Positions 21,254 through 49,017 of a stretch of DNA of 64,000 nt are shown piece after piece; positions within the stretch are counted from its first letter, which is position 1, and every line of letters starts with the position of its first letter. A program made the position numbers and the translations under genes. The stretch covers positions 80,437 through 144,436 of the forward strand of contig JANLHI010000030.1 in assembly GCA_024654525.1 (NCBI GenBank). The letters run 5' to 3'. The notes under the pieces are model-generated. The model did not search any database, had not been told where the DNA came from, and saw only the letters and a program-made list of their open reading frames with translations. This stretch comes from Patescibacteria group bacterium (GTDB taxonomy: Bacteria > Patescibacteriota > Minisyncoccia > UBA6257 > 2-01-FULL-56-20).

Positions 21254-21796
21254 ATGTCTGACGATATACAAAAAAACGAATCCGAAGAAGTCGGTGATGC
21301 GCCGAAAAATAATGAAAGTGCAACCACTGAAGGCGAAGAGAATGATCTTCAAAAATGCGAGCGCGAGCGTGATGAATATCTTTCGGGGTGGCAACGTGCA
21401 AAGGCGGATTTTATCAATTATAAAAAAGACGAGATGAGAAGATTCGAAGAAATCGCAAAATATGCGAATACTGCGTTGCTTATGGATCTTATTCCCGTTC
21501 TCGACAGTTTTGACCTCGGAATCCGCGCACTTGAGAAGGCGGGGCAAGTAGAAAAGGGAGTATATATGATTAAAGCGAGTTTAGAAGATACATTGCGAAG
21601 AAGGGGGTTAGAGAGAGTGGTGAGTGTGAAGAGGTCGCTGTTTGATCCCGGAAGCGCAGAAGTAGTTAGCGAGGTAGAATCTGAAGAACCACCAGGAACA
21701 ATTATTGAGGAAATCGAGCCCGCATATCGTTTGCATGATAAAATTATCCGACCGGCGCGAGTAAAAGTGAGTAAGGGGAAGGAAGGGAGTCAGTAA
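21254..21796 (+). CDS. grpE: nucleotide exchange factor GrpE
   Basis: 180 aa; the GrpE core (RAKADFINYKKD..., LLMDLIPVLDSFDLG) plus synteny with dnaK. Confidence 0.85.
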   Translation: MSDDIQKNESEEVGDAPKNNESATTEGEENDLQKCERERDEYLSGWQRAKADFINYKKDEMRRFEEIAKYANTALLMDLIPVLDSFDLGIRALEKAGQVEKGVYMIKASLEDTLRRRGLERVVSVKRSLFDPGSAEVVSEVESEEPPGTIIEEIEPAYRLHDKIIRPARVKVSKGKEGSQ

Positions 21797-21821
21797 TCAT
21801 TAATTAATAATTTATTATCAA

Positions 21822-23675: not shown

Positions 23676-24669
23676 GGAAACACAAAATTTTGCGACACAG
23701 CTTCCTGTGGAGCGTACTCGGGAACCAAGCGGTTTTTATGTTGCTTTGGCGCTCGATGTACTTACGGTCGCATGCGCGCTTTGGATAGGACTTTCATATC
23801 GAACATTTCTTGATGTGGGCACCGGCTGGGCGGGGATTCTCCTTTCAGGAGGAGGTTTTTCGGTATGTCTGGCGCTCGGACTTTACCTTACAAAAAGCAT
23901 CACTCGAAGAATACTTGTTATTCTTGGTTCGGTGGCGGGACTTTTTCTTTTTACTGCTTCCTCAATAAATTATGCGTATGCCGGTTCAGCGGCATTCATA
24001 GTTTTCTTTCTTATTTTATGGGGAGAGGCGGCAAGTCGTGCGCATATTGCCAATGGAATCGAAGTGCGCGTCATGCAAGGAGTGAGACCTCTTCTTGCAA
24101 AATCCACCACTGCACTTATCGTCGCGGGCCTTTTGCTCTATATTCCTTACTGGAGTCCCGCAGGGTCATTTTTCTCTCAAGGATCATTCAATGGAATTTT
24201 TCAGTCTACTGGAGAAGCGTTGCATCGGTTCTATGGAGAAATTGATTTTGTAGGGACATTTGATTCGTTTACCACAAGTATTGCGCGGCATAGCCTTTTA
24301 TCCGCTCCTGATTTTCGGAGGCTTCCGACTATCGAGCAGGAAGCGACCGTGCGTAATCTTGCGGTTACCGTGAAAGAAAATCTTTCAAATGCGCTCGTAA
24401 TTTCTCCGGAAGAAGCGGAAAGTCCTATGCATGTTATTTGGTACAAAGTGATTTTACAATCTCTTGCATGGCTTGAAGATAAATTCGGAGTTTGGTTTAT
24501 CGCGATATGGCTTCTTTCCCTCTTCGGAATATTGAGAGGTATCGGCGTGCTATTCTATTGGTGTGCCGGACTTATTACTATGCTTTTTTTCCAAACACTT
24601 CTTGTGACAAAAGTGATAACTACTAAAGGAGAAACGTGTACGCGCGAGGTAGTCGAATATGTTCAATAA
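23632..24669 (+). CDS. hypothetical polytopic membrane protein (overlaps the dnaK 3' end by 44 nt)
   Basis: 345 aa with at least seven predicted TM helices; the start codon is uncertain. Confidence 0.4.
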
Positions 24670-24678
24670 CCACATACT

Positions 24679-25761
24679 ATGAATTCGAAAGATTATTATC
24701 AAGTTCTTGGAGTTGCACGCGGCGCAAGTGAAGATGAAATAAAAAAAGCGTATCGGCGTCTTGCGCACCAACATCATCCCGATAAAACAGGTGGGAGCGA
24801 AGACAGATTTAAAGAAATAAACGAGGCATATCAGGTGTTGTCGGATAAGAAAAAACGTGAATCTTATGATCGTTTTGGAACCGCAGATCCCACGCAAGGG
24901 TTTGGAGGGGGAGTTTCGTGGGAGGGTTTTAGCGGTTTTGATGCGCAGGGATTTGGTGATATGGGAGACCTTGGCGATGTATTCGAAACTCTTTTTGAAA
25001 ATTTTGGAGGGCGTCCCAGAAGGCGGACATATTCGCATGGTTCTGACTTGGAGGTTAAGGAAGAAATTGAATTAAAAGATTCACTTCGCGGGACGGTAAG
25101 GCATCTTCGTTTTGCGACTTTCAGTACATGTGAAACATGTAAGGGGAAGGGTGCGGACAGTGACGCGGGTTTTTCTCAATGTGGCGCATGTGGCGGACGC
25201 GGAGAGGTTCGTGTGGATAAACGCACTTTTTTCGGAAGTTTCTCGCAAGTAAAAGCATGTACCCAGTGCCATGGATCGGGGCAAATTCCGAATAAAATAT
25301 GCCGTTCTTGCGAAGGGAATGGGAGAAAAACGGCAACTCGAGAAGTGGACGTAGAGATACTTCCTGGAATTGAAGATAATCAGCTTATCAAAGTGAAGGG
25401 GATGGGAGAGGCGGGAGAGCGAGGAAGTGCTTCGGGAGATTTATATATACGGATACGTATCAAGCCTCATGCAATATTTGAGCGTCGTGGTAATGATCTT
25501 GTGATGAAGTATGAGTTAAAGTTGTCGGATTTATTTTTGGGGAAAAAGATTAGTATCTCGACTCTTGGCGGAAACGACGTATCGATTGAAATTCCTGCAC
25601 ATTTTAATCTTAAGGACTTATTCCATATTCCCGGAGAAGGAATGCCTCGCTTTGGTTCTCGCGGGCGCGGTGATTTGTTGGTGGATTTTATTTTGAAAGC
25701 GCCGAAGAAATTAAGTACTAAGGCGCGTAAGACACTCGAAGATATCAGTGGGGAACTTTGA
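24679..25761 (+). CDS. dnaJ: molecular chaperone DnaJ
   Basis: J-domain (DYYQVLGV...HPDK) and four CxxCxGxG zinc-finger repeats. Confidence 0.9.
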
Positions 25762-25822: not shown

Positions 25823-25895
25823 GCCTCGCTAGCTCAATTGGCAGAGCAGCTCCCTCTTAAGGAGACGGTTGTAGGTTCAAGTCCTACGCGAGGCA
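25823..25895 (+). tRNA. tRNA-Lys (anticodon CTT)
   Basis: Cloverleaf folded by hand: 7-bp acceptor stem, D stem gctc/gagc, anticodon loop cTCTTaa with U33 and A37, T loop TTCAAGT. Confidence 0.8.
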
Positions 25896-25950
25896 CCGGC
25901 GGTGTTGTGATAATACGTACCGCAGTTGTAGGATTTGTTTAGGAGATATG

Positions 25951-26024
25951 GCCCCCATAGCTTAGTGGCAAAGCAGCTGCCTTTTAAGCAGTTGATCTAG
26001 GTCCGATTCCTAGTGGGGGCACCA
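25951..26024 (+). tRNA. tRNA-Lys (anticodon TTT), with encoded CCA
   Basis: Acceptor gcccccA/tgggggc, anticodon stem gctgc/gcagt, loop cTTTTaa, T arm ctagg-tccgatt-cctag, 3' end ...gcACCA. Confidence 0.8.
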
Positions 26025-29819: not shown

Positions 29820-31163
29820 ATGTTCGGAGATATTTTTAATATTATTGTCCACTTCCTTGATTTGAGTAAGTGGTTTATCGCCTTTTTTATTCTATGGCCG
29901 CTTTTTGAGTCCACGTGGATTGGATGGCGCCAATTTACCTACGAGCATTCGAGGGAATTCAGAATGGTGATGTTTGAAATGCGTATCCCGCGTGAAATCA
30001 GGAAGGGTCCTCGTGCCATGGAGCAGGTGCTTATGTCCTTATATTCTCTTCGCAATACCGCGGGTGATTTTCAAGAAACGTGGTGGGATGGTGAAATCAC
30101 GAAATGGTTTACGCTCGAAATTGTGAGTTTTGGGGGAGAGATAAAATTTTTTATCAGAGCATATTATAAGCAACGCCCACTTGTTGAAGCTGCGTTTTTT
30201 GCCCACTATCCGGATGTGGAATTGGTTGAAGTTGATGATTATATTGATCAGCTTCCTTCTGATTTAGATGATCTCTACTCGCGCGGATATGATGCATGGG
30301 GGTCGGAAATGGTACTCGCAAAGGAACCCGCATATCCCATCAGAACTTATCCTGACTTTGAGGCGCCTGACGAAGAACGCCAGCATGATCCAATTTCGTC
30401 GTTTCTTGAGGTATTGAGTAAGGCAAAAAAAGAAGAAACGATCGGTATACAAATCCTTATTGCTCCCGCAAGCGATGATTGGAATGAAAAATGGAAGGGA
30501 CTCATCGACAAGATGAAAGATGAATCTTCCAAACATATGGGGGGAAAAACAATAACGAATTTTCCAGGAGGTCCTCTTCCGGTATTTATATCTGAACACG
30601 AAGCTGAAAATCAATTCAAAGCGCTTTCCTTAAAACGTACGCCGGGGGAAACCGATGTGCTTGAAGCGATAGAGAATAATCTTTCGAAACCCGCGTTTGA
30701 GACTATTATTCGTTTCATGTATTTTTCGCCTAAACCGCTTTTTTACGACTCATTTGCACGTCGTGGTATCACGGGTATGTTCAACCAATACGCGGCGCTT
30801 GACTTGAATATGTTCAAGCAGAATTATTCGGTAAGCACGCGTGTGAAATTTTGGCATTGGCCTCATTTTTTCTACGATATTCGCGCCGAGTACAGGAAGG
30901 CAAGTTTGTTACATTGCTATCGCCACCGAATGATGCCCCATCATACTTTTATGGGAAAAATCCTGTATTCCCAGTTTTTTCGTTGGGATTTTGCCACAAA
31001 AACAATCACGCTCAACGTGGAGGCGCTTGCGACGTTGTTTCATCCGCCGACATTCCTCGTACTTACCGCACCTCATATTAAGAGGGTCGAGAGTAGAAAA
31101 ACGGGACCTCCTGCGGGATTGGCTATTTACGGAAATGAAAAAGAAATTGAGCGCTTTCAATGA
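29820..31163 (+). CDS. hypothetical protein (447 aa, N-terminal TM anchor)
   Basis: Long ORF with no recognisable family motif; immediately upstream of the 171-aa membrane protein and the VirD4/TraG-like ATPase. Confidence 0.5.
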   Translation: MFGDIFNIIVHFLDLSKWFIAFFILWPLFESTWIGWRQFTYEHSREFRMVMFEMRIPREIRKGPRAMEQVLMSLYSLRNTAGDFQETWWDGEITKWFTLEIVSFGGEIKFFIRAYYKQRPLVEAAFFAHYPDVELVEVDDYIDQLPSDLDDLYSRGYDAWGSEMVLAKEPAYPIRTYPDFEAPDEERQHDPISSFLEVLSKAKKEETIGIQILIAPASDDWNEKWKGLIDKMKDESSKHMGGKTITNFPGGPLPVFISEHEAENQFKALSLKRTPGETDVLEAIENNLSKPAFETIIRFMYFSPKPLFYDSFARRGITGMFNQYAALDLNMFKQNYSVSTRVKFWHWPHFFYDIRAEYRKASLLHCYRHRMMPHHTFMGKILYSQFFRWDFATKTITLNVEALATLFHPPTFLVLTAPHIKRVESRKTGPPAGLAIYGNEKEIERFQ

Positions 31164-31217
31164 TTTTTTCTTCAGTACCGATATGACAATGCATATAGTT
31201 AACCTCTCACAACTTCA

Positions 31218-31733
31218 ATGAATAACGGCGGACTAGATTTTTTCGGAACACACGAGTTTTGGATGTGGTTCTATTCCATACTCAATTTTATTTTTCTTGC
31301 GATAGATATTGCACTGTTTGTGGGATTTATATACGCGCTTATCCATGCATGGAAATATCGCCCCAAATTCAGATTGTCAAAAAAGACAAATGCCGGCGCT
31401 ATGGCGTTACGTATGGTGGTATTTAAGGAACGATGGGAAGAAGTTCTTAAGCGGATGGCGATTCAAACTTCGGATTCAATGAGGCTTGCGATACTTGAAG
31501 CAGACGCGCTGGTTGACTCAATACTCAAAGAACTTGGGTTCGAGGGCGATCATATGGCGGATCGCCTTGCAAAAATCACCCCCGAGAGTCTTTTATGCAT
31601 TGATCGCTTGTGGCGTGCACACCGGTTGAGAAATGAGCTTGTGCATACTCCCGATTATACAATCGAAACGGAAAAAGCTCAGCAAACGATTGAAGACTAT
31701 GAATCATTTATGAAAGAGATTAAAATATTGTAG
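31218..31733 (+). CDS. hypothetical membrane-anchored protein (171 aa)
   Basis: One N-terminal TM helix followed by a soluble helical domain; same orientation and tight spacing as its neighbours. Confidence 0.45.
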   Translation: MNNGGLDFFGTHEFWMWFYSILNFIFLAIDIALFVGFIYALIHAWKYRPKFRLSKKTNAGAMALRMVVFKERWEEVLKRMAIQTSDSMRLAILEADALVDSILKELGFEGDHMADRLAKITPESLLCIDRLWRAHRLRNELVHTPDYTIETEKAQQTIEDYESFMKEIKIL

Positions 31734-31751
31734 AACAAAAATCTTATTATT

Positions 31752-33200
31752 ATGTCGCGTCCAGGGAAAGTACAAATAATCAAATATGCCCCGCCTCCTC
31801 CGGAACTTCCCATCTATGGACAGGCGGATCCAAAGGAATGTTCCTTCATCGGGAGAACGAACTACGTTGCGGCGCTTGAGGAAAAAAAGTTTATTTTCGG
31901 TATTAACCGAAAAGACCGTCGGCGCCACCTTTATATTGTGGGGAAGAGCGGCGTGGGAAAAACAAAACTGCTTGAGCTTATGATTCGTCAAGATATCGCC
32001 CATAATCATGGGCTTTGTCTTATTGATCCTCACGGAGATGTGGTTGACGCAACTATTGATTTCGTGCCGGAAAATCGCATAGAGGACGTGGTAATTATCG
32101 ATCCAACCGATTTCGAATATCCCGCATCGTTCAACCCACTTGCGAATGTCGATCCTAATTTCAAGCACCAATTGACTCAAGGGCTTATCGAGGTCATGGA
32201 GAAACAATTTGGCGCGAACTGGACTCCTCGGCTTGAACACGTATTCCGTTTTACCGTGCTGGCATTACTTGATTATCCCCACGCTACCATGCGAGGGATG
32301 ATTTCGATGTTAACCGATCGAAACTATAGGCAAAAAGTCGTGGAGTATATCGAGGATGATATGGTAAAACGCTTTTGGGCTATTGAATTTGCGGATTGGT
32401 CGGAAAAGTTCGATACCGACGCTATTATTCCGCTTGTCAACAAGTTGGGGCAATTTTTGTCGGACCCGATGCTTCGGAATATTTTCGGACAGAAGGAAAA
32501 CAAAATACGACTTGAAGATCTTATTAACCAAAAGAAAATTATTCTTATCAATCTTTCAAAGGGAAGACTTGGAGAAGAAAATTCAAGTTTTTTTGGCTCC
32601 ATGTTCATCACAAAGATCAAACAGGCGGGTATGGCACGTGCAGGCCTCCCGGAGAAAGATCGGCACGATTTTTATCTGTATGTGGATGAGTTTCAAAATG
32701 TGGTTACCGAGACATTTGAAAATATTCTTTCTGAGGCGAGGAAGTACGGATTGTGCCTCACGGTTGCACACCAATACATGGGACAGCTTTTGCCTCGAGT
32801 ACAAGCGGCGGTACTTGGTAATGTGGGAAGTATTGTGATCTTTCGTGTCGGAGGTGACGATGCGGTAACACTCAAGCCGGAAATGGCTCCGGTGTTTGAC
32901 GTGAAAGATATGATTAATCTTGGCGTGAGAGAATTCTACATCAAGCTTATGATTGACGGAGAATCCTATGATCCTTTTTCCGCGGAAACACTTGCGGTAC
33001 TTGATCCCCCTCATCGGTCATTCCGTAAAGAGATTATTCAACGTTCACGCGAAAAATACGCGATTCCCGCTGATTCTGCGAAAAAGCTTATTGCCGAAGA
33101 GGAATCGACAATTCTTCGAAGCGCTCAAGAGAAGGCTATTATCGAAGGAAAGTCACCCAAAAACACAGAAGTGGAGAAGGTGGCGGAACCGCTGATATAA
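31752..33200 (+). CDS. VirD4/TraG/TraD-family P-loop NTPase (type IV secretion coupling-protein-like, soluble)
   Basis: Walker A YIVGKSGVGKT, LIDPHGD, Walker B LYVDEFQN, VAHQ; no predicted TM segment. Confidence 0.55.
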   Translation: MSRPGKVQIIKYAPPPPELPIYGQADPKECSFIGRTNYVAALEEKKFIFGINRKDRRRHLYIVGKSGVGKTKLLELMIRQDIAHNHGLCLIDPHGDVVDATIDFVPENRIEDVVIIDPTDFEYPASFNPLANVDPNFKHQLTQGLIEVMEKQFGANWTPRLEHVFRFTVLALLDYPHATMRGMISMLTDRNYRQKVVEYIEDDMVKRFWAIEFADWSEKFDTDAIIPLVNKLGQFLSDPMLRNIFGQKENKIRLEDLINQKKIILINLSKGRLGEENSSFFGSMFITKIKQAGMARAGLPEKDRHDFYLYVDEFQNVVTETFENILSEARKYGLCLTVAHQYMGQLLPRVQAAVLGNVGSIVIFRVGGDDAVTLKPEMAPVFDVKDMINLGVREFYIKLMIDGESYDPFSAETLAVLDPPHRSFRKEIIQRSREKYAIPADSAKKLIAEEESTILRSAQEKAIIEGKSPKNTEVEKVAEPLI

Positions 33201-33729: not shown

Positions 33730-33814
33730 TGAAAATAATTAAACCATAAAACAATAATATATACAAGTGCCTAGTTTTAAAAATATTTAATTGCATATAT
33801 ACTATTGTAATATT

Positions 33815-34480
33815 ATGGACGAAATCATTAACGCGTACGATTTAAAAAATCCCGAGGTTGCGCTTCCCATGTCGCGTGCAAAGTTTTACGAAGATCAAAT
33901 CGCGGCATATAAATCAGGGGTAGCTCCCACCGCTGCGGTGGAAATAATAGACATTTTTCTTTTTACCGGGGATAAAGAACTTTTTATCCAAAAACGTTCG
34001 TTTCATAAAGCACACAATCCTGGACTTTTTGATAAAGCCGTAGGCGGGCATGTGCGGCATGGCGATACACCTGATTTCAGCGCCATGGTGGAAACAGTGC
34101 AAGAGCTTCAGACCCCTTCGATTGTATTAAGGAATCAAACCGATTTTATAAAAACGTTGAGTTTACTCAAAGAATATCTTGATACTGTCGCAGTACTTAT
34201 GCATGTGGGCACCGAAATTGCTCCGATACAAAAAATTTTTTCGGGAGAATCTATTCCGATTGCAAACAAGATTCAGTTATATTTCGGAATTTATAACGGA
34301 AGAACTCGATCTGCCGACCATGAAGCGAAGGGGGTTTTGCATTATACGTTTGATGAGTTGCAACAGGAAATGGAAAAATTTCCTGCCGCTTTTACCGATG
34401 ATATACATTTTCTTTTTGGAAAATACAAGAAAGAAATGATTGCATTTCTTGAATCAAGCGAGAAAATTCTCGGAGTATGA
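33815..34480 (+). CDS. NUDIX-like domain protein (divergent Nudix box)
   Basis: GGHVRHGDTPDFSAMVETVQELQ aligns with the Nudix box GX5EX7REUXEEXGU, but several catalytic Glu/Arg residues are replaced; the ORF-track start at 33791 is also possible. Confidence 0.35.
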   Translation: MDEIINAYDLKNPEVALPMSRAKFYEDQIAAYKSGVAPTAAVEIIDIFLFTGDKELFIQKRSFHKAHNPGLFDKAVGGHVRHGDTPDFSAMVETVQELQTPSIVLRNQTDFIKTLSLLKEYLDTVAVLMHVGTEIAPIQKIFSGESIPIANKIQLYFGIYNGRTRSADHEAKGVLHYTFDELQQEMEKFPAAFTDDIHFLFGKYKKEMIAFLESSEKILGV

Positions 34481-36180
34481 GTGATTTTAAAACAAAAAAT
34501 TGCTCCCAGTGCGCATTTTCATTTGCAATCACCGCGGAAGATAGCATTTGGTACAACAAATTTGACGTATGCGATCCGAAGCTGTGTCCGCGATGCCGCG
34601 CCCAGCGGCGGCTCGCATTTCGCAACGAGCGCTCGTTTTATAAGCGTCCATGCGACAAATGCAAAAGGGATGTGGTTTCAATGTATAGTCCGAATAAGCC
34701 CTATGCGGTATGGTGTCATGATTGTTGGTTCGCGGATGATTGGGACCCGAAGGATTTTGGGAAAGACTATAATCCTTCGCAACCCTTTTTTGAGCAAGTC
34801 GAGAATATTTGGAGGCAAGTGCCAAAAGTCGCGCTGATTCACGTGCGAAGCGTGAATTGCGAGTACTTGAACGTATGCGCGGACAATAAAAACTGCTATA
34901 TGATAGTGGAATCTTCGAATAACGAGGATTCGATTCATTGTTATTGGATTCAAAAAACGCGGGGGTGTGTGGATACTTCATTCTCCCATGAATGCGAGCG
35001 GTGCTATGAGTCCGATGATATCTATAACTGCTATCAGGTGCGTTACAGCAAAGGATGTCACGATTGCCGCGATGCATATTTTCTTTTTGATTGTCGGAAT
35101 TGTTCGGATTGCATCGGATGCGTAAATCTTCGCAATAAACGATATTGCATTTTCAACAAACAGGTGACCAAAGAAGAATATCGGAAGTTTTTAGATGAGG
35201 CTCGGCTTGATACTCATACCGGAGTGGAGAAAATACAAACACAATTTGAAAAATTCAAAGCGACACAGCCGCACAAATATGCCGAAGCGGTGAATACCGT
35301 GAATTGTACGGGGAATTATTTGAAGGATGCGAAAAACTGTATTGATTGCTTTCATACCTACGAAGCCGAAGATTGTAAATATGCACTACATGCATGGCGG
35401 GATGCGAAGGATTGCGTGGATACGGATACTACCGGCAGGGGAGTGCAAATGGTCTACAACTCGCATAACACGGGAATTAATGCTTCAAATTGCATCTGTT
35501 GCGCGCAGTGCTGGGGAAGCATGCTTCTTGAATATTGCTCGCACTGTCACGATTCGCAAAATTGTTTCGGCTCCACCGGATTACGAAAGGCGAAGTATTG
35601 CATCCTGAATAAACAATATTCCGAAGAAGAATATAAAAAACTCAAGGCACAAATTGTCGAGCGTATGAAGCGGGATGAAATATACGGAGAGTTCTTTCCT
35701 CCGTCATCAAGTGCATTCGGGTACAACGAAGCGTGCGTACAGGAGCAATTCCCGCTCACCAAAGAAAACGCGCTGGCACAAGGGTTCAAATGGGAATATC
35801 ATCCGCGCGGCACCTATGGAAAGGAAACGGTGGATTGGGGAGAGATTTCGGATTCAATCCGTGACTTCACAACCGAAGATATCAATAAAGACATCTTTGC
35901 CTGCACCGCATGCAAAAAGAATTATCGCATTATTCCCGACGAACTCGCGTTGTACCGCAAACTCGAAATTCCTCTCCCGCGCGTGTGCCCCGACTGCCGC
36001 CATGCGCGGAGATTCGTCGCGCGCGGGCCTAATCGCCTGCGAACCGAATCATGCAAGTGTACCGTGGCTCACCATGCGCATGGTGATGCTGGTTGTTCAA
36101 TTACATTCAAAACTGCGTATCCGAAAGAATGGAATTTTCTTTTATACTGCGAAGCCTGCTATAACGCAGAAGTGGCGTGA
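34477..36180 (+). CDS. Cys-rich multi-zinc-ribbon protein (paralog 1; 567 aa, about 9% Cys)
   Basis: N- and C-terminal CxxC...CxxC ribbon modules (LCPRCRAQRRLAFRNERSFYK; NYRIIPDELALYRKLEIPLPRVCPDCRHARRF) and a central run of NCxDCxGC-type repeats; paralogous to 38197..39867. Confidence 0.6.
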   Translation: MSDFKTKNCSQCAFSFAITAEDSIWYNKFDVCDPKLCPRCRAQRRLAFRNERSFYKRPCDKCKRDVVSMYSPNKPYAVWCHDCWFADDWDPKDFGKDYNPSQPFFEQVENIWRQVPKVALIHVRSVNCEYLNVCADNKNCYMIVESSNNEDSIHCYWIQKTRGCVDTSFSHECERCYESDDIYNCYQVRYSKGCHDCRDAYFLFDCRNCSDCIGCVNLRNKRYCIFNKQVTKEEYRKFLDEARLDTHTGVEKIQTQFEKFKATQPHKYAEAVNTVNCTGNYLKDAKNCIDCFHTYEAEDCKYALHAWRDAKDCVDTDTTGRGVQMVYNSHNTGINASNCICCAQCWGSMLLEYCSHCHDSQNCFGSTGLRKAKYCILNKQYSEEEYKKLKAQIVERMKRDEIYGEFFPPSSSAFGYNEACVQEQFPLTKENALAQGFKWEYHPRGTYGKETVDWGEISDSIRDFTTEDINKDIFACTACKKNYRIIPDELALYRKLEIPLPRVCPDCRHARRFVARGPNRLRTESCKCTVAHHAHGDAGCSITFKTAYPKEWNFLLYCEACYNAEVA

Positions 36181-36303
36181 GAAAGGTAGAGTTTCCCGAA
36201 GGCCTTGATAAAAGAGGGCGAATGGATGTTTCTAATTTTTGTGGGTTGAAAGAATTGAAGTTTTGAGTTACCTTTTAATAAAGGTCGTTCTTTAACGGTT
36301 CCT

Positions 36304-36612
36304 ATGGTTCTTATCTATACCACCTGCAAAAATACGGAAGAAGCGGTGAAGATAGGTAAAATAATTCTCGACAAAAAACTTGCCTCGTGCGTAAATATCT
36401 GGCCGTTGCAAAGCATGTATTACTGGCAGGGAAGGCTGGAAAATCATCTCGAAACGGGCATGCTTGTTAAAACGCTCGAGCATCATCTTTCGGAAATCGA
36501 GAGTCTCATCGAAGCCAATCACTCGTACGCGACGCCATACATCGGTGCGATTGAGGTGAGAAGGTTTAATCGGGCATATCGAGAGTGGATGTCTTCGGTG
36601 ATAAAACCTTAA
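36304..36612 (+). CDS. cutA: divalent-cation tolerance protein CutA
   Basis: 102 aa; LIYTTCKNTEEAVKIGKIILDKKLASCVNIWPLQSMYYWQG matches CutA1. Confidence 0.75.
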   Translation: MVLIYTTCKNTEEAVKIGKIILDKKLASCVNIWPLQSMYYWQGRLENHLETGMLVKTLEHHLSEIESLIEANHSYATPYIGAIEVRRFNRAYREWMSSVIKP

Positions 36613-36660
36613 TATTTTTTTCGCCTGTTTCGTGTTGTATGAAATAGCGTCCGAGATTTT

Positions 36661-38181
36661 GTGGCGCAGAGTGTTCCTTGTACACCCATATCAATTATGC
36701 ATACCACTACTACCACCACATTGCTACATAACGACTCGCTTCTTTTTGTAATTAGAGAAGGAGAAAGTATTCAGCGACACCCATTTTGGAAATTTCTCAA
36801 CGATGAAGATCGGCAGTATTTTGGATTTTCAATGAAAAAAAATCTCTTGCAGGGAGATTTTTCTCGAACTCTTGTTTTTCCGAGCGGAAGGATAGCGTTG
36901 ATTCTTGGTGTATGCGAAAAGAAAAAATATAATGCGCGCAGGACTATTCTTACCGCCCGACGTGCCATCGTAAGCGCTCGAGCGGAAAGGATATCTCACC
37001 TTACCGTTGCTCTTGAGGATTTTGCATCTCTTCGATCTATACCGGAAGAAGTTGCGTCGCGTATCGCCACTCAATTTGAAGTTGCTAATTTTGAATTTGT
37101 CGCTCACCGAACAGCCCCAAAGAGCGGGTGGGGATTTGTTGAAAGTATTTCCATCTTTATATCTTCAAAAAACTCTTCGCTTATTCGTGCGGTAGCCGAA
37201 GGAAAAATAATAGGAGAGGAAATAAATAAAACTCGATTACTTTCAAATACTCCGGGGGGGGATATGACTCCGTCGCATCTTGCCGGCGCGGCAGTTCAGG
37301 TGGGTAAGAGTTGCGGAATCAAAGTGACTGTATTAAAAGAAAAGGAAATCGAAGAGCTTGGCATGGGAGGTGTCCTCGGAGTTGCGAAGGGCTCATCGGA
37401 ACCCCCGCGTTTTATCGTGATGGAATTTTCCGGAGGAAAGAAAAATGAGTCTCCCACTGTGTTAGTAGGGAAAGGAGTTACCTTCGATACGGGAGGTCTT
37501 AATTTAAAGCCAAGCAATGGGATTTATGAGATGCACATGGATATGTCCGGAGGAGCCGCAACCATTCATACCATTGCCGCGGCTGCACGGTTAAAACTAA
37601 AAAAGAATATCGTCGGACTTATTCCCGCGGTTGAAAATATGCCCTCTGGGTCAAGTTACCGTCCAGGAGATCTTTTAAAGTCGATGTCAGGGAAAACGAT
37701 TGAGGTCATGAATACCGATGCCGAAGGAAGGGTGATTCTTGCCGATGCGTTGGAATATGCAAAGCGATATAATCCGAAGATTGTGATTGATATTGCAACA
37801 CTGACGGGTGCCGCAATGGTGGCGCTTGGACAACGCGCTTCTGCGGTATTTTCGAACGAAGAAAATATACATGAGTCGCTTTGTGAGGCAGGCGAACGAG
37901 CGGGGGACTATGCATGGCCGTTACCTCTCTGGGAAGAGTACGAAGCTGATGTAAAAGGAACGTTTGGAGATTTCGCAAATTCCGGAAAGAGCCGTTATGG
38001 AGGAGCGATTGAGGGGGCGGTGTTTCTACGTCAATTTATACGCAATAGCGATGGATCGGATGCATATCCGTGGGCGCATCTCGATATCGCGCCTCGTATG
38101 ACATCCGTTGAGGGCGAATTCCTCACAAAAGGCGCTGCGGGTGCACCCGTTGCATTACTCTTGGCATTTTTACGGAAATAG
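36661..38181 (+). CDS. pepA: leucyl aminopeptidase (M17 family)
   Basis: NTDAEGRVILADAL, VGKGVTFDTGG and other M17 catalytic-domain motifs; the start codon is uncertain. Confidence 0.85.
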   Translation: MAQSVPCTPISIMHTTTTTTLLHNDSLLFVIREGESIQRHPFWKFLNDEDRQYFGFSMKKNLLQGDFSRTLVFPSGRIALILGVCEKKKYNARRTILTARRAIVSARAERISHLTVALEDFASLRSIPEEVASRIATQFEVANFEFVAHRTAPKSGWGFVESISIFISSKNSSLIRAVAEGKIIGEEINKTRLLSNTPGGDMTPSHLAGAAVQVGKSCGIKVTVLKEKEIEELGMGGVLGVAKGSSEPPRFIVMEFSGGKKNESPTVLVGKGVTFDTGGLNLKPSNGIYEMHMDMSGGAATIHTIAAAARLKLKKNIVGLIPAVENMPSGSSYRPGDLLKSMSGKTIEVMNTDAEGRVILADALEYAKRYNPKIVIDIATLTGAAMVALGQRASAVFSNEENIHESLCEAGERAGDYAWPLPLWEEYEADVKGTFGDFANSGKSRYGGAIEGAVFLRQFIRNSDGSDAYPWAHLDIAPRMTSVEGEFLTKGAAGAPVALLLAFLRK

Positions 38182-38196
38182 TTTGAGTATATTTTT

Positions 38197-39867
38197 ATGA
38201 TGGGCGCGCAAAAACACTGTCGTATATGCAATACCGGATTTGAAATCGATTCTTCTGATCTTTCCTTTTATGAAAAAATGGGAGTACCTTCTCCGATGCT
38301 TTGTCCGATATGTCGTTTCCGCCGACGTGCCGTATTTCGCAATGAGCGGACCCTGTATAAGCAGGCATGCCGACTTTGTGGGGAATCCGCAATTACGATG
38401 TTTAATCCGAAAGAATCTCATATTGTGTATTGCAATGATTGTTGGTGGTCCGATAAATGGGATGCCCGAGAATATGCGCAAGGGTACGATGAAAGAAAAC
38501 CATTTTTAGAACAATTAAATGAACTTGCAAAAAAAGTCCCGAAAGTGGCGACCTATTCGACTGCCGCACTTGGCCCCAATATCAACAGCGAATATTCGAA
38601 CTTTGCCGGAGGTAATAAGGATTGCTATCTTTGTTTTAACTCGGGACCGCGGAATGAGAATTGCGGATATTCACGGGGAATGATCCAGTGCCGTGACACC
38701 TTTGATGTTTACTTTGCTCAAGAATCGGAACGTCTTTACGAAGGCGTGAATGTTCAAAAGAGTACGGGAATTGCGTGGGGTCAAAATACCCTGGAATGCC
38801 TTGATTCGTGGTTTCTCTTGAACTGTGCAAGTCTTCAGAATTGCTTCGGATGTGTTAATTTAAGGCATAAATCCTTCTATTTTTTAAATGAGCCACTCTC
38901 TAAAGAAGAGTGGACTCGAAAAGTTGGAGAAATTGCGGGAAGCTATCGTAAACTGCAAGAATTCAAAAAAATATTCGAGACGCATGCGAAAGCATTCCCT
39001 CGTCGCGAAAATAGTAATTTAAAATCAGTAGACTGCACGGGGGATTATATTTTTGCATCGAAAAATTGTCGGAACTCTTTTGAAGTGGCGAATGGAGAAG
39101 ATCTTCGGTATGTATTTTCGATAAAATTCGCAAAAGATTGTTATGACATTATGGGACATGGAAGAAATTCGGAACTTCTTCTTGAAGGAGTGGGGGTGGG
39201 AGTTTGTCAGCGAATAATTACCGGATGGTTTGTCGAAAATTCACATGACGTAGAGTATTGCCTTGCGGTAAGAGGCAGTGAAGATTGTTTTGGATGTGTG
39301 GGACTGAAAAATGGAAAGTATTCTATTTTAAATAAGCAATATATCGAAGAAGAATATAAGGAATTGCGGAACAAAATTATTGAAGAATTGAAGAAAGAAG
39401 GGGAGTATGGGCACTTTTTCCCGCCTTCTATGGCTTTTTTTGCCTATAACGAAACTGTTGGTCAAGACAATCTTCCTCTTTCAAAGGAAGATGCAATAAT
39501 GCATGGATTTCGTTGGGAAGAGGACATCCCCACGATGAAAGGACGGGAGACTATGAAGTCAGAACAGATTCCCGATCATATTAACGATGTACCGGATTCA
39601 ATACTGCATGAAATCCTTGCATGTATTTCATGTGGAAGAAATTACCGTCTTATAAAGCCGGAGTTGGAAGTATACCGGCATGCATTGATTCCGATTCCAC
39701 GCGAATGTTTCAATTGTAGGCATCTTGACAGACTTCGCCGAAGAGGATTGTTTGCGCTTTTCAACAGAGAGTGCGCGAAGTGCACAAAAAATATTACAAC
39801 AAATTATTCTCCCGACCGTCCGGAGACGGTGTATTGCGAGGGTTGTTATCAAAGTGAAGTAGTTTAA
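38197..39867 (+). CDS. Cys-rich multi-zinc-ribbon protein (paralog 2; 556 aa)
   Basis: Same architecture and many identical blocks as 34477..36180 (LCPICRFRRRAVFRNERTLYK, NCFGCVNLRHK, ILNKQYIEEEYKEL, YGHFFPPS, NYRLIKPELEVYRHALIPIPRECFNCRH). Confidence 0.6.
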   Translation: MMGAQKHCRICNTGFEIDSSDLSFYEKMGVPSPMLCPICRFRRRAVFRNERTLYKQACRLCGESAITMFNPKESHIVYCNDCWWSDKWDAREYAQGYDERKPFLEQLNELAKKVPKVATYSTAALGPNINSEYSNFAGGNKDCYLCFNSGPRNENCGYSRGMIQCRDTFDVYFAQESERLYEGVNVQKSTGIAWGQNTLECLDSWFLLNCASLQNCFGCVNLRHKSFYFLNEPLSKEEWTRKVGEIAGSYRKLQEFKKIFETHAKAFPRRENSNLKSVDCTGDYIFASKNCRNSFEVANGEDLRYVFSIKFAKDCYDIMGHGRNSELLLEGVGVGVCQRIITGWFVENSHDVEYCLAVRGSEDCFGCVGLKNGKYSILNKQYIEEEYKELRNKIIEELKKEGEYGHFFPPSMAFFAYNETVGQDNLPLSKEDAIMHGFRWEEDIPTMKGRETMKSEQIPDHINDVPDSILHEILACISCGRNYRLIKPELEVYRHALIPIPRECFNCRHLDRLRRRGLFALFNRECAKCTKNITTNYSPDRPETVYCEGCYQSEVV

Positions 39868-43991: not shown

Positions 43992-44390
43992 ATGCGCATA
44001 ATCGACGCAAAAAAACACATCGTGATAGGAGCGGCGCTTTTGGCAAATAGTATATTTTTTACGGGTATTTTTTATACATCGGCAGCACCACCACAAACAA
44101 TTCCGCTGATTGATGGCGGCTCTCTTCAAAAATTGCCGGATCCTATCCGGAATTTTATTCAATCCGGCATTAATTTAAATAACTCCGTCTCGCAGTGGAC
44201 TCCTCCTCTTGCGCTTTCCGGCAGGGGAGAGCGAATTAGCAATGCGGCCCAAGGTATTTTGAGATCTGCGATTTCAGTGGTAATTACCGCTATCAGTTGG
44301 ATTATTGTGGTGGCAACACAGGCAATAATGATTGTGGCGGGAATCACCATACACATCATTCATTGGATTATCGAAGCGGTACGATTGTGA
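43992..44390 (+). CDS. hypothetical small membrane protein
   Basis: 132 aa; an N-terminal and a C-terminal TM helix. Confidence 0.4.
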   Translation: MRIIDAKKHIVIGAALLANSIFFTGIFYTSAAPPQTIPLIDGGSLQKLPDPIRNFIQSGINLNNSVSQWTPPLALSGRGERISNAAQGILRSAISVVITAISWIIVVATQAIMIVAGITIHIIHWIIEAVRL

Positions 44391-44403
44391 TAATTATTGA
44401 TTT

Positions 44404-45081
44404 ATGGAAAAAGAAATTATTTTCGAGAATACGCGTTATGAACGAATTCCTATTCGGACGCACAAAATAAAATTCGGAGAATCGATTATATCGGTACTCG
44501 AAACGTATCTTCCGGCAATTGTTAAGCCGGGAGATTGGCTTGCAATCTCCGAAAAGCTAATCTCGGTTTCTCAGAATAACATCCGACATATTTCCACCGT
44601 ACACGCGGGGATGCTTGCGCGTTTCATTGTGAAGGGAGTTAAAAAATATCCGAACGATGTCGGTTTTTCCCGCCCTGAAAAAATGCAGCTTGTTGTGGAA
44701 TATGCAGGCGTCGTGAGAACTTTTTTTGCGATGAGTATAGGCGCTCTGGGAAAGCTTTTAGGTATAAGGGGAGTCTTTTGGGTGCTTGTCGGATCTCGCG
44801 CGGGAGAAATAGACGGATTTAATCCCGATGCAATGGATCCGTATAAGGACCACGCCGTATTACCTCCGAAAAATCCTGAAAAAGTATGCGCCGACATAGA
44901 ATCTCGGTTCAATATTCCCACAACAATTATCGACGGCAATAATATTAATGTAAAAATAATTTCAATGAGCCCTAAAATGCCGGTCGATAAAAAAAATGCA
45001 CGGCTGTTGTTATTGGATAATCCCATGGGTCAAGACGATGAGATGACACCATTCGTATTGGTAAGGAAGTTACAGGAATAA
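44404..45081 (+). CDS. CofE-like (F420-0:gamma-glutamyl ligase family) domain protein
   Basis: VKPGDWLAISEKLISVSQNNI resembles the CofE/F420-ligase fold motif. Confidence 0.45.
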   Translation: MEKEIIFENTRYERIPIRTHKIKFGESIISVLETYLPAIVKPGDWLAISEKLISVSQNNIRHISTVHAGMLARFIVKGVKKYPNDVGFSRPEKMQLVVEYAGVVRTFFAMSIGALGKLLGIRGVFWVLVGSRAGEIDGFNPDAMDPYKDHAVLPPKNPEKVCADIESRFNIPTTIIDGNNINVKIISMSPKMPVDKKNARLLLLDNPMGQDDEMTPFVLVRKLQE

Positions 45082-45177
45082 GTGCCTACCTACCTGCGCG
45101 AATATATGTACTGTCGTGAAATCTACCTTGTGCGACAGATAGAATTATAAAATAACCCCGGTAAACACTACCTCCCC

Positions 45178-45735
45178 ATGCTTCCCCTAGGACATATTGC
45201 GACAGGATACCTTGTCGGACGCATCGTATCTTTTTATGCGAACGCTCCTTCGGAATATGCGGATTTATTTGTCTTTGGCGGAATTATTGCCGGTACAATA
45301 CCCGATATCGATTTTATTCCTTTTTTTATCAAACATCGAGCTCTGAAGCTTGTCCGAGGTTCTTCTCATCGGAATTATATTACTCATACGCCTGTGTTAT
45401 GGTTCATCCTTGGGCTATGTATCTATTTCTTGAATTATGACAGTCCTGTGCGTTATTTCGGTATTATTCTTTGGTTAGGAACATGGAGTCATTTTCTCGG
45501 TGATTCTCTCGAGTATGGGATTCGCTGGCTGTGGCCTTTTACTAATACATACTATTCCGTTTACCCCAACCCTTCTGCGCCGAAATTAAGCGAAATTGCG
45601 GCTTCCATTCATAGTCCCGAGGGCAGTATCCCCTTTTATTTTGAGTATTTACGCGTGGTATATTTCAAGAGTCGCGTATGTTGGCTTGAATGTTCCGTAA
45701 TAATAATCGCTCTATTTTTCTTTTTTTATATATGA
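45178..45735 (+). CDS. membrane-bound metal-dependent hydrolase (DUF457/YdjM-like)
   Basis: 185 aa; GHIATGYL...PDID...NYITHTPV and the WSHFLGDSLEYGIRW pattern typical of DUF457. Confidence 0.45.
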   Translation: MLPLGHIATGYLVGRIVSFYANAPSEYADLFVFGGIIAGTIPDIDFIPFFIKHRALKLVRGSSHRNYITHTPVLWFILGLCIYFLNYDSPVRYFGIILWLGTWSHFLGDSLEYGIRWLWPFTNTYYSVYPNPSAPKLSEIAASIHSPEGSIPFYFEYLRVVYFKSRVCWLECSVIIIALFFFFYI

Positions 45736-47144
45736 AAGAGCGTGTCCATCTTATTGGCATAGGAGGAATCGGTATGAGCGCGTTGGCACGTTGGTTTTGC
45801 GCTCATAGCTGGCAAGTTTCCGGATCGGATATTACCGCAACCGATATTACCAACACACTCCGTGATGAAGGTATAAAAGTTTTAATAGGGTGCTCTTCAA
45901 AAAACATATCCGCGGCAGTCTCACTCGTAATCACGAGTCAGGCGATATCTTCTTCTAATCCCGAGGTAATAGCCGCATCAAAGTTCAAAATCCCCGTCCT
46001 TAGCTATCCTGAGATGCTCGGAGCTATCACTCGTGCGAGTACTACAATCGCAATAGCGGGATCGCATGGTAAGAGTACCACTACCGCGCTCACATCCCTT
46101 ATCTTTATGTATGCAAAAAGAAATCCTACGGTTATCGTAGGGACATTACTAAAGGAGTTTGGAAATTTAAACTTTCATGCAGGATCCGAGCAACTACTCA
46201 TCATGGAAGCCGATGAGTACGGAAAAGCATTTTTTCATTATTCTCCGACTATTGTGGCGGTTACTAACATAGACCGGGAACACCTTGATATTTACCCCAC
46301 AATGCAAAGTGCTCAACGCGCATTCCTTACCTTTCTTTCCCACACCAAACCCGGCGGTACATTGGTACTCAATCGCGACAATCCTCCGCTCTACACCCTT
46401 TCCCACGCTATTCAAAAATTGTCAAAAAAAAATAATCTCACGTTATATTGGTATTCGCTTCATGATGCGATAGCAAAAGAGGTGAGAAAACATATGACTG
46501 TTGTTGGAGAGCATAATATCTCAAACGCTCTTGCGGCTTTCGTGATTGCTACGCGCGTCGCCGGAATTTCCAAAAAAGATGCGCTCCGCGCACTTTCGCT
46601 ATACCAAGGGACGTGGCGCAGAATGGAATACCGAGGAGATTTGAACATGGGACATGGAATAGGGAACAGAAAGGTATTAAAAAATCGTGTCCCAAATTCC
46701 CAATTCCCGATTCGGGTATTTGATGACTATGCCCACCATCCCACTGAAATCAAAGCGACTCTTGATGCATTTCGCGCGCAATACCCAAACTCCCCTCTTG
46801 TCTGTGTATTTCAACCGCATCAAACATTGCGTCTTCGTAAACTTTTCAAAGAATTTATCGCGGCAGTTTCAGGTGCGGACGCACTCGTGCTTCTTCCTGC
46901 ATATCAAGTTTCCGGCAGAGACAAAAACGATCTGCGTTTTACCTCAAAGACTCTTGCGGTCGCAATCCAAGAACAACATCCCGACATGCCGGTGACGTAT
47001 GTTTCTCATCGAAAAAGAATTAAACAGGCAATACTCTCGATTATGCATCTATTACCGCCCGCTACTTCGCATAAAGATTCACCCACCGTTGTCATGATGG
47101 GTGCCGGAGATATAGTGAATTGCACCAAAACATTACTCATATAA
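45732..47144 (+). CDS. murC: UDP-N-acetylmuramate--L-alanine ligase MurC
   Basis: VHLIGIGGIGMSALA, IAGSHGKSTTT and the Mur ligase domains; the start was set at the internal ATG (ATGA overlap with the upstream gene). Confidence 0.85.
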   Translation: MKERVHLIGIGGIGMSALARWFCAHSWQVSGSDITATDITNTLRDEGIKVLIGCSSKNISAAVSLVITSQAISSSNPEVIAASKFKIPVLSYPEMLGAITRASTTIAIAGSHGKSTTTALTSLIFMYAKRNPTVIVGTLLKEFGNLNFHAGSEQLLIMEADEYGKAFFHYSPTIVAVTNIDREHLDIYPTMQSAQRAFLTFLSHTKPGGTLVLNRDNPPLYTLSHAIQKLSKKNNLTLYWYSLHDAIAKEVRKHMTVVGEHNISNALAAFVIATRVAGISKKDALRALSLYQGTWRRMEYRGDLNMGHGIGNRKVLKNRVPNSQFPIRVFDDYAHHPTEIKATLDAFRAQYPNSPLVCVFQPHQTLRLRKLFKEFIAAVSGADALVLLPAYQVSGRDKNDLRFTSKTLAVAIQEQHPDMPVTYVSHRKRIKQAILSIMHLLPPATSHKDSPTVVMMGAGDIVNCTKTLLI

Positions 47145-47168
47145 TCGCGTATACTACGCAAATATACA

Positions 47169-47957
47169 ATGTCGGATTACTATAGAAACGAGGGAGAATT
47201 TAAAGAAGCATGTGGTTATACAATTGATGGAAAATGGTTTCCACGCGTCACAAAGATTGTATCAATTAAAGCGAAGCCGGCATTGCTTCGCTTCTACGCG
47301 GAAGCGGAAAGTTTTGATGCCGCGCAAAGTATTACGCAAAAATCGGCGGAAGAAGGTACGCTGATTCATGAAGCGGTGGAGAATATTTTTCTTGGGAAAA
47401 GCCAAGAAATTCCGGAGTCTATTCGTCCCGCGGTAAATTCCTTTCTTGAGTTCTTAGATACGAAAAGCATCCGTGTTGCGCCTGATTTGGTAGAAAGACG
47501 CGTGGTGCATTATGGACACCGCTACGCCGGCACCGTGGATGCGCTTGCGCTTATTGATGGGAAGTTTGGAGTATTGGATATTAAAACTTCACAAGACATC
47601 TATCGTGATTATAATCTTCAGACTTCCGCCTATATGGATGCCCTTAAAGATACTTTTCCCAATCTCTCTACTCGATGGATATTGAGAATTGACCAAATTC
47701 AGACTTGCATAGTGTGCGATGCGATCCGACGCCTTAAGGGTGGGCGTGAAAAAATACGAATGCCAAAAGGCGCCAACGGCTTTACCATTCGCAAAGCGGG
47801 AATTCCGGAACACGCGCACGAGTGGTCCCCTCTTAAGGGAGTAATTGAACTCAAAGAATTTCCTTATTGGAAGAATGATTTTGAAGCATTTCTTGGTGCG
47901 AAACGCCTCTGGGAATGGGAAAATGAGTTGTGGCTGAAAAGGATACAGTATTCTTAA
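47169..47957 (+). CDS. PD-(D/E)xK nuclease superfamily protein (RecB/Cas4-like fold)
   Basis: YAGTVDALALIDGKFGVLDIKTS supplies the D...(D/E)xK catalytic motif; a CxxC cluster lies downstream. Confidence 0.5.
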   Translation: MSDYYRNEGEFKEACGYTIDGKWFPRVTKIVSIKAKPALLRFYAEAESFDAAQSITQKSAEEGTLIHEAVENIFLGKSQEIPESIRPAVNSFLEFLDTKSIRVAPDLVERRVVHYGHRYAGTVDALALIDGKFGVLDIKTSQDIYRDYNLQTSAYMDALKDTFPNLSTRWILRIDQIQTCIVCDAIRRLKGGREKIRMPKGANGFTIRKAGIPEHAHEWSPLKGVIELKEFPYWKNDFEAFLGAKRLWEWENELWLKRIQYS

Positions 47958-47964
47958 GAAAGGT

Positions 47965-49017
47965 TTGACCGCACTATCACATCCCGAATACAATAAGACA
48001 ATGAGCACCGAACGAATTACTATCCGGCGTAGTCCGGCGGTTCTTATACGCAATCTTGCGCTTATCGAGCTTGTCGCATTTATCCTCTATGTCGTTGCGG
48101 TAACACTTGGAAATTCTAAATATGAGCTCTATTTACAAATTCCTCTTCTTCCTGATATTTTCCCTTATCAAGCGCTTAAAATATTTGCGCTCTCCGGAAT
48201 CCAATTTGTCATTACCATTTATGCATTTCTAAGCTGGTACTACGAACATTATGTGGTCATACCAACGATGATTTCTCATGAGCGTGGCATATTTTTCAAA
48301 CAAAGTACCAACGTACCTTTCCGCGAGACGATGTCGGTGACTTTGGTCGAAGGACCCATACGAAAACTTCTCCACTGCGGGTCGCTCATTATACACAACT
48401 CGTCTTTGCCGATACTTACGCTTACCGATATCTCATATCCCAAAAAATATCTCGATATCATTCTTACTCGCCTTAACGGTTCTCATGCGTACACTATAGA
48501 ACCATCATCTCAACGAGTGGGAATCGCGGAAGATATATTACAATACGAAGAACATTCCAAGCTTGAATTTAAGTCTTCGTTGCGCTTTGATCACCATACA
48601 AAAAAAGTGAATCGCGAGCTTGAAAAAGTGACAATGAAAACCGTTGCGGCATTTTTAAACTCGGATGGCGGGCGATTGGTAATCGGAGTTGGAGATGATA
48701 AAAGTCCCCTTGGATTACACCATGACTACCAAACACTCGGACGGCAATCTGCGGATGGGTTTGAAAACCACTTCACTCAATTATTCAATAAGATGCTTGG
48801 TCCGGATATTCGCCACCTTGCACAACTCACGTTTCATAAAGTACAGGATAAGGATATTTGCATGGTAGACATCTCTCCAAGTCCGCGACCGGTATATCTT
48901 GCGACAGAGAACGATGAATTCTTTTATGTCCGCACCGGAAACATCAGCACCCCCCTTAAATTAAGTGAGGTGGAATCATACGCACGGGAACGTTGGCCTC
49001 ACGCTATGACGGGATGA
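47965..49017 (+). CDS. membrane-anchored bacterial-PH (YdbS/T-like) plus AlbA_2 (Schlafen-like putative nucleic-acid-binding) domain protein
   Basis: Two N-terminal TM helices, then a bPH-like segment, then LEFKSSLRFD...KTVAAFLNSDGGRLVIGVGDD matching the AlbA_2 core; an alternative start lies at 48001. Confidence 0.5.
   Translation: MTALSHPEYNKTMSTERITIRRSPAVLIRNLALIELVAFILYVVAVTLGNSKYELYLQIPLLPDIFPYQALKIFALSGIQFVITIYAFLSWYYEHYVVIPTMISHERGIFFKQSTNVPFRETMSVTLVEGPIRKLLHCGSLIIHNSSLPILTLTDISYPKKYLDIILTRLNGSHAYTIEPSSQRVGIAEDILQYEEHSKLEFKSSLRFDHHTKKVNRELEKVTMKTVAAFLNSDGGRLVIGVGDDKSPLGLHHDYQTLGRQSADGFENHFTQLFNKMLGPDIRHLAQLTFHKVQDKDICMVDISPSPRPVYLATENDEFFYVRTGNISTPLKLSEVESYARERWPHAMTG

Follow-up and report, generated by a model that had tools for sequence, protein, structure and literature searches.

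A large Patescibacteria family of predicted zinc-finger and solenoid proteins encoded in tandem arrays and often beside orphan VirD4-like ATPases

The CxxC-x17-CxxC domain (zf_Tbcl_2; PF23477, TIGR04272) is known from stand-alone proteins of approximately 40–60 amino acids (aa) or from short repeats; small proteins of this kind from Methanosarcina mazei bind zinc as determined by inductively coupled plasma mass spectrometry (ICP-MS) (PMC12704099), and the domain's own function is unknown. The zf_Tbcl family (PF13451), described in Pfam as a ‘probable treble clef domain’, has neither a known function nor a known association with a solenoid. Compact beta-solenoids, such as curli CsgA (8c50), the spruce budworm antifreeze protein (1m8n) and the ryegrass ice-binding protein (3ult), are secreted. 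In Legionella, the VirD4-family ATPase DotL carries a C-terminal extension that recruits small Cys-rich zinc-binding proteins as adaptors, which select cargo; the adaptors of DotL include the zinc-binding DotN (IcmJ) as well as IcmS/IcmW. In Patescibacteria, a survey of 2,918 genomes counted 5,713 VirD4-like coupling-protein homologs, most of which lie away from virB4, and what they do in these bacteria is acknowledged to be an open question (PMC12102498). Here, we analyze two paralogous genes, A and B, in a stretch of 64,000 nucleotides (the window) from the metagenome-assembled genome (MAG) of a Patescibacteria group bacterium (assembly GCA_024654525.1, contig JANLHI010000030.1, positions 80,437 to 144,436 of the forward strand). 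They belong to a very large family, seen only in small-genome Patescibacteria, that combines building blocks of known kinds (treble-clef fingers and a beta-solenoid) and for which we found neither a name nor a published description. We propose, with a probability of roughly 40%, that its members are symmetric zinc-finger/solenoid proteins that work with orphan VirD4/TraD-like hexameric ATPases as adaptors or clients, that they are not a zinc store and that they have no tie to the cutA and pepA genes lying between A and B.

A reading of the letters and open reading frames (ORFs) without database searches (the sequence-only reading) had already delimited the two genes, paired them as paralogs and argued that they are neither an assembly artefact nor membrane or exported proteins, and all of this is borne out. 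The genes are as follows.

34477..36180, plus strand: gene A, 567 aa with 47 Cys; a 100% match to NUV53_03705, ‘hypothetical protein’
38197..39867, plus strand: gene B, 556 aa with 31 Cys; identical to NUV53_03720, ‘hypothetical protein’

Both are listed as NCBI proteins of the MAG. The two proteins align over their full length at 35% identity (BLASTP, E 9e-127), whereas the sole match between the genes at the DNA level is one 44-nt stretch of 82% identity. Given full-length protein identity of 35% and DNA similarity that is otherwise nil, A and B are ancient paralogs, and duplication during assembly is ruled out. Hydrophobic stretches are absent from both proteins, in which the 19-residue Kyte-Doolittle mean peaks at 0.96 (A) and 1.26 (B), and no signal peptide is predicted, given that both N-termini lead directly into the first zinc knuckle. 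As judged from these properties, A and B are soluble and cytoplasmic-looking.

We used an alignment of 50 homologs, which was also the query for the locus search, and a second alignment of 145 diverse representatives, together with AlphaFold (AF2) models of both proteins. The models of A (predicted local distance difference test (pLDDT) 83.9, predicted template modelling score (pTM) 0.85) and B (pLDDT 88.9, pTM 0.91) have the same plan, in which each protein is predicted to be a symmetric scaffold with a zinc pair at both ends, and two homologous narrow beta-solenoids and an acidic region between them. In gene A, the parts are laid out as follows, with the layout of protein B given last.

34477..34761, plus strand: N-terminal zinc pair, comprising Zn1 (C9, C12, C37, C40; zf_Tbcl-like, basic) and Zn2 (C59, C62, C80, C83)
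34849..35160, plus strand: beta-solenoid 1 (aa ~125–228), with the cap motif DCRNCSDCIGCVNLRNKRYC at its end, followed by a helical hairpin (aa 232–262)
35305..35616, plus strand: beta-solenoid 2 (aa ~277–380), with the cap motif NCFGSTGLRKAKYCILNKQYS at its end
35623..35886, plus strand: long helix and conserved acidic region (YGEFFPPS...FGYNE...FPLTKE...GFKWE), of high pLDDT and a net charge of about -7
35887..36177, plus strand: C-terminal zinc pair, comprising Zn3 (C476, C479, C504, C507; basic) and Zn4 (C526, C540, C558, C561)
Protein B: zinc pair aa 1–95; solenoids aa 126–232 and 269–381; acidic region aa 382–470; zinc pair aa 471–556

Finger 1 of A (aa 1–48) consists of CxxC...CxxC and then an Arg-rich helix, finger 2 (aa 49–95) has the exact CxxC-x17-CxxC form, and a linker helix separates this pair from solenoid 1; the FRNER motif is present in the N-terminal double CxxC...CxxC module of both proteins. 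Homology links the N- and C-terminal finger pairs (hhalign probability 99.7%, E 2e-25), which confirms the internal duplication suspected by the sequence-only reading, and a second duplication is evident in the two central domains, which are likewise homologous (99.5%, E 2.6e-22). In both AF2 models the solenoid strands are spaced 12 residues apart. The terminal motif has the general form DCxxCxNCFGCVNLR in solenoid 1 and CFGCxGLRxxxYCILNKQYS in solenoid 2. What had been taken for a central run of NCxxC.GC repeats is really these two cap motifs, which end homologous domains, together with a period-3 Cys/Ser pattern.

The zinc modules can be connected to described domains, and to that extent the earlier impression of an unrecognized family has to be revised; it stands for the protein as a whole, which is uncharacterized, and for its centre. 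The family has the exact spacing of zf_Tbcl_2, and PF23477 matches two stretches of B at 42.1 bits, above the cut-off of 27, as well as 26 of the 50 aligned members; TIGR04272 scores 34.1 bits in B, slightly under its cut-off of 36, and A has no PF23477 match at E < 0.1. Modules 1 and 3 (CxxC ... PxxCPxCR..RR), with a basic helix after the second knuckle, are like zf_Tbcl: PF13451 matches 27 of the 50 members at E ≤ 0.01 (best 2.8e-5), and A and B, which do not themselves reach that level, are securely homologous to those members in the alignment. In this family, by contrast with the stand-alone or repeated zf_Tbcl_2 domains, a solenoid protein of 560 aa has one such domain at each end, preceded in both cases by a zf_Tbcl finger. 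Two consecutive Cys-rich fingers are also found in LIM domains (CRP1, PINCH, PDLIM5), which align weakly to the C-terminal zinc pair (E 0.011–0.2, not significant for membership), but neither the LIM ligand spacing nor the His ligands are reproduced in the family.

The central 370 residues are covered by no Pfam or NCBIfam model, and no known domain matches the acidic region of A. A PDB fold search found nothing past generic solenoids: the double solenoid has no solved structural relative. The compact solenoids 8c50, 1m8n and 3ult are 3–9% identical to the family, with no sequence similarity, and these proteins are secreted, whereas the family looks cytoplasmic and has a Cys/Ser core at strict period 3 and two capped solenoids per chain. 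Left-handed beta-helix acyltransferases are a more distant fold comparison. A hexapeptide enzyme of that kind (acyltransferase or gamma-carbonic anhydrase) was rejected: no Hexapep Pfam model matches, and the Cys period is 3 and the strand spacing 12, not 6 and 18. Curlin repeats are likewise without a match in the family, and PF04519 (bactofilin) is unmatched. As a side observation, solenoid 1 of A (34855..35172, aa 127–232) weakly matches phrog_15341 (E 1.3e-4), a family of phage proteins with no known function.

The sequence-only reading had expected on the order of 45–50 Cys in each protein, which is correct for A (47, or 8.3% of its residues) but not for B (31); among the 145 diverse members the median is 38 and the range 19–49. 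Only 16 of these Cys behave like ligands, predicted to form four Cys4 structural zinc sites. Their conservation among the 145 representatives, in the numbering of A, is as follows.

Zn1 (C9, C12, C37, C40): 93–100% conserved
Zn2 (C59, C62, C80, C83): 58–90% conserved
Zn3 (C476, C479, C504, C507): 71–100% conserved
Zn4 (C526, C540, C558, C561): 97–99% conserved

The outermost two sites are near-universal, and two sites are lost in 25–40% of members. Exact CxxC-x17-CxxC spacing is found at C59–C83 of A and twice in B (C58, C61, C79, C82 and C526, C529, C547, C550). The C-terminal copy in A is interrupted by an insertion (C526...C540...C558, C561) at a point where B has a plain CxxC. In A-type orthologs this insertion, which lies within the first knuckle of Zn4 (aa 526–540), contains conserved His residues (for example CKCTVAHHAHGDAGC), and a variant set of ligands may be in use at Zn4 in the A subfamily.

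All Cys outside the four sites fall in the two central domains, at every third position and with no phase slip. In solenoid 1, the autocorrelation of the Cys fraction stays at 0.40–0.68 for all lags divisible by 3 as far as lag 30 and is negative for the rest; in solenoid 2 it is weaker (0.09–0.52) and fades past lag 18. The Cys columns of the solenoids contain 26–94% Cys (most of them 26–86%) across the 145 members, the alternatives being Ser, Val, Leu and Ile, and these swaps are seen among paralogs and even among orthologs. Because the period of 3 is strict and the residues are swapped with Ser, Val or Leu, we conclude that the central Cys probably pack the core of a narrow solenoid and do not bind metal.

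The family is large. Word-seeded searches with A and B returned 6727 and 4238 homologs, respectively, and an exhaustive profile search gave 5518 clusters at 50% identity, 2193 of which had E ≤ 1e-30, nearly all of them full length (540–600 aa). A scan of species-representative genomes confirmed the family in at least 567 stretches, from which 79 loci were fetched for their titles and gene content; neighbor counts below are given per 79–80 loci. With one exception, the 79 titles are either generic or consistent with Patescibacteria, and they include Liptonbacteria, Jorgensenbacteria, Nomurabacteria, Staskawiczbacteria, Uhrbacteria, Falkowbacteria, Magasanikbacteria, Paceibacterota and Minisyncoccia. 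The exception, a 277-kb contig titled as a Burkholderiales MAG (JAMPXW010000001.1), holds a member 51% identical to A and a second copy, and the contig or bin is probably mislabelled Patescibacteria. Orthologs of A and of B are 55–76% identical across several candidate phyla, and every named homolog is labelled either ‘hypothetical protein’ or ‘CxxC-x17-CxxC domain-containing protein’. The literature that we searched on zf_Tbcl/CxxC-x17-CxxC domains and on Patescibacteria Cys-rich or zinc-ribbon families contained no description of the family, of its organization in tandem arrays or of a link to orphan coupling proteins. The suggestion of the sequence-only reading that this is an undescribed family of small-genome bacteria therefore agrees with what was found. 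A phage or plasmid-like origin was rejected, given that neither a pattern scan of IMG/VR nor a tblastn search of GenBank phages with B found a relative. A role in anti-phage defence was set aside on the same absence, together with the lack of a PADLOC match for A or B and the housekeeping character of the neighboring genes.

The usual arrangement of the family is the same-strand tandem array. By profile search of the ORFs in the 79 loci we found 105 arrays of 1–10 genes; the loci average 3.1 copies, and up to 10 family genes are present per 17.6-kb locus. Two overlapping loci of JALLOO010000001.1 (1..30413) together contain no fewer than 17 family genes in unbroken succession on one strand, which occupy 30.4 kb; the array is truncated at either end of the fetched sequence. 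Compared with these arrays the window is a sparse example with two copies only, and not a special two-gene arrangement. Copies within a locus have a median identity of 39.6% (maximum 63%), and for 176 of 187 copies the closest relative lies in another genome and not in the same locus. The arrays are thus sets of ancient, individually conserved paralogs, and recent lineage-specific amplification, as in antigenic-variation-like arrays, is rejected. Patescibacteria make up a large share of bacterial diversity with genomes of approximately 1 Mb, and some of them spend at least 30 kb on ancient paralogs of one unnamed family, which suggests an important, lineage-defining function.

The lead to a function comes from the neighbors of the arrays. 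In the window, what looks like a split VirD4/TraD/HerA-like unit of the coupling-protein type, in which one gene product has an N-terminal transmembrane (TM) segment and another is a TM protein, is encoded upstream of A.

29820..33200, plus strand: the whole unit, three co-directional genes, 1.3 kb upstream of A
29820..31163, plus strand: first gene, 447 aa with an N-terminal TM segment; matches phrog_5156
31218..31733, plus strand: second gene, a 171-aa TM protein whose C-terminus is weakly HEPN-like (PADLOC CARF_HEPN 1.7e-4; RNELVH)
31752..33200, plus strand: third gene, a soluble ATPase of 482 aa; matches PF01935, PF10412, PF02534 and PF12696, NCBIfam conju_CD1115 and TraD, and phrog_5156

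Since phrog_5156, a family of phage proteins with 824 positions and no known function, is matched by the first and third genes alike, the ATPase of the window appears to be split from its membrane part. Homologs of this ATPase are the commonest neighbor of the family (24–27 of 80 loci, always on the same strand) and the top immediate neighbor on either side of the arrays, with recurring cassettes that run from an ATPase gene through any number of family genes to another ATPase gene. The distances are short: of 33 ATPase genes, 23 have a family gene no more than 300 bp away (median 77 bp), compared with 21.5% of 534 control genes (median 2.2 kb). Approximately 15 of the neighboring ATPases (650–1000 aa) bear a C-terminal CxxC-x17-CxxC finger, as in the family, that matches PF23477 at 1e-12 to 1e-14. 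In a reverse test on 80 metagenomic loci anchored on ATPase homologs, family genes were near 19 of the 30 closest homologs.

The finding that these ATPase genes are the commonest immediate neighbors of the arrays, and that the ATPases often have the same C-terminal zf_Tbcl_2 finger, leads us to infer, at low confidence, that family members cooperate with orphan VirD4-like ATPases as adaptors or clients. Each paralog would dock on the ATPase through its terminal finger pairs, and the basic fingers and a face of the solenoid would hold its particular cargo, which could be nucleic acid or protein. Such a role would be loosely like that of the zinc-binding DotN on the Legionella coupling protein DotL, in that the ATPases concerned bear a C-terminal zinc finger and are encoded beside the Cys-rich proteins; the comparison is functional speculation only, and unlike DotL these ATPases are mostly not encoded with a type IV secretion system (T4SS). 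It is a further and more doubtful step to regard the arrays and the flanking orphan ATPases that share their zinc finger as one unrecognized Patescibacteria-specific machine, a hexameric translocase with up to ~17–20 cargo-specific adaptors that would move DNA, RNA or proteins. If true, it would serve organisms that must get most of their building blocks from a host, and it would explain the thousands of Patescibacteria type IV coupling protein (T4CP) homologs that are encoded without a T4SS. What is gained in either case is a domain map that separates zinc-ligand from core Cys, evidence against metal storage and a lead to the VirD4-like ATPases.

Several observations weigh against cooperation with the ATPases. 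In the reverse test, a family gene was near just one of the 50 more distant ATPase homologs, and the association, although real, is confined to particular ATPase subfamilies or lineages. Many of the adjacency loci come from related Paceibacteria that share long synteny (rpoA...grpE, family, dnaK, ATPase, family in approximately nine of them), and because of this the adjacency counts are non-independent and some may reflect inherited gene order. Of the 105 arrays, 48 consist of one gene only, and the genes immediately next to most arrays are not these ATPases. The window itself is not a clean example, as its ATPase has no zinc finger and is separated from A by two intervening genes, of which one lies on the other strand. 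A shared small zinc finger is weak evidence of interaction, and the solenoid regions of both models are of moderate confidence (pLDDT 50–75).

Among the other explanations, the one that survives best, although we consider it unlikely, is that the proteins are nucleic-acid-binding housekeeping factors that act without an ATPase, with basic fingers that bind RNA or DNA (tRNA, rRNA or incoming DNA) and one substrate per paralog. Zn1 and Zn3 do carry charges of +3 and +5, with invariant Arg residues on the helix following the second CxxC, and the presence of many old paralogs, each conserved in its own right (one genome has at least 17), points to substrate-specific functions. The remainder of the protein is acidic, however, as is the protein as a whole (median isoelectric point 6.2), and Pfam and NCBIfam scans detected no known RNA- or DNA-binding domain. 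Translation genes are frequent nearby (GluRS in the window, and IleRS-type, ArgRS, CCA-adding enzyme and ribosomal protein operons elsewhere), but they are a large part of any small genome and the neighborhood may be due to chance; the strongest neighbor signal is the ATPase and not a translation gene.

The same ATPase genes could be read in a second way, with the family as effectors that a Patescibacteria T4SS exports to the host and that the adjacent coupling-protein-like ATPase recognizes. VirD4-like ATPases adjoin the family genes, a Sec signal is absent, tandem paralog arrays are typical of host-interaction genes and VirB2 pilin arrays are known in Patescibacteria (PMC12102498). We nevertheless find effectors improbable. 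Orthologs are conserved about as well as housekeeping proteins (55–76%) and the paralogs are ancient, unlike fast-evolving effectors, and the arrays are located in core housekeeping regions. Most of the ATPase genes in question lie at a distance from virB4, and export would require the unfolding of four zinc sites and two solenoids, which would be difficult.

It is very improbable that the proteins are holdases or co-chaperone-like zinc-finger partners of the DnaK system. In approximately nine other genomes, 1–4 family genes are inserted between grpE and dnaK, and in the window an hrcA-grpE-dnaK-dnaJ heat-shock operon (20510..25761) lies approximately 10 kb upstream of A. DnaJ likewise has Cys4 zinc fingers. 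Yet neither the window nor the majority of loci has the insertion, the genomes that have it share one long synteny block and are probably one lineage, and Pfam scans gave no similarity of the family to the CXXCXGXG domain of DnaJ.

There is very little to recommend a self-assembling cytoskeletal or scaffold polymer, in which solenoids would stack end to end and the zinc pairs would give head-to-tail contacts between paralogs: the homologous N- and C-terminal modules and the many co-encoded paralogs would suit it, but the polymer-forming bactofilin and curlin families have no Pfam match and the solenoids are capped by conserved motifs and helices, against open-ended stacking.

The least supported explanation, zinc storage, buffering or other metal handling with CutA and the M17 metallopeptidase, had been suggested by the sequence-only reading from the number of Cys and from the genes between A and B, which Pfam confirms to be cutA and pepA.

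36304..36612, plus strand: cutA (CutA1), PF03091, 7e-29
36661..38181, plus strand: pepA (M17 leucyl aminopeptidase), PF00883, 8e-114

Although the Cys content is high, CutA recurs beside family genes in 4–5 of 80 loci and CxxC-x17-CxxC domains do bind zinc (PMC12704099), a metallothionein-like or storage function is largely refuted by unconserved Cys columns in which Ser, Val or Leu take the place of most Cys, by members with as few as 19 Cys, by large and confidently folded models with structural Cys4 sites, unlike metallothioneins, and by pepA being nearby in only 1 of 80 loci. At these neighbor counts, cutA and pepA are incidental neighbors with no functional tie to the family.

One further gene adjoins A in the window.

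33791..34480, plus strand: NUDIX-like gene, with a stop that overlaps the start of A (ATGA) and a weak PF00293 match (5e-4, just below cut-off)

The overlap of stop and start makes it probable that this gene and A share a transcript and that their translation is coupled. The gene was found in 2 of 79 loci and is no conserved partner of the family, and a promoter and terminator scan gave no signal beyond shuffled expectation. The other neighbors are mostly housekeeping genes, both in the window (murG, gltX (GluRS) and secDF) and elsewhere (rpoA, L17, L13, S9, S13, S11, S4, grpE, dnaK, IleRS-type, ArgRS, CCA-adding enzyme and an ABC transporter).

The following features of the window were also observed. 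Between dnaK and dnaJ lies a 345-aa ORF (23632..24669) without a Pfam match, and two adjacent tRNA-Lys genes (anticodons CTT and TTT; 25823..26024) are found downstream of dnaJ. A protein with a PaaX-central/Cas2-like domain (PF20803, 5.7e-22) is encoded at 15342..15890; its homologs recur beside the arrays of 11 other loci, mostly on the other strand and directly upstream of dnaK. At ~44000..48000 the GC skew turns from positive to negative, with a cumulative skew peak near 46 kb and nearly all genes before it on the plus strand, and this switch may mark a replication terminus or origin.

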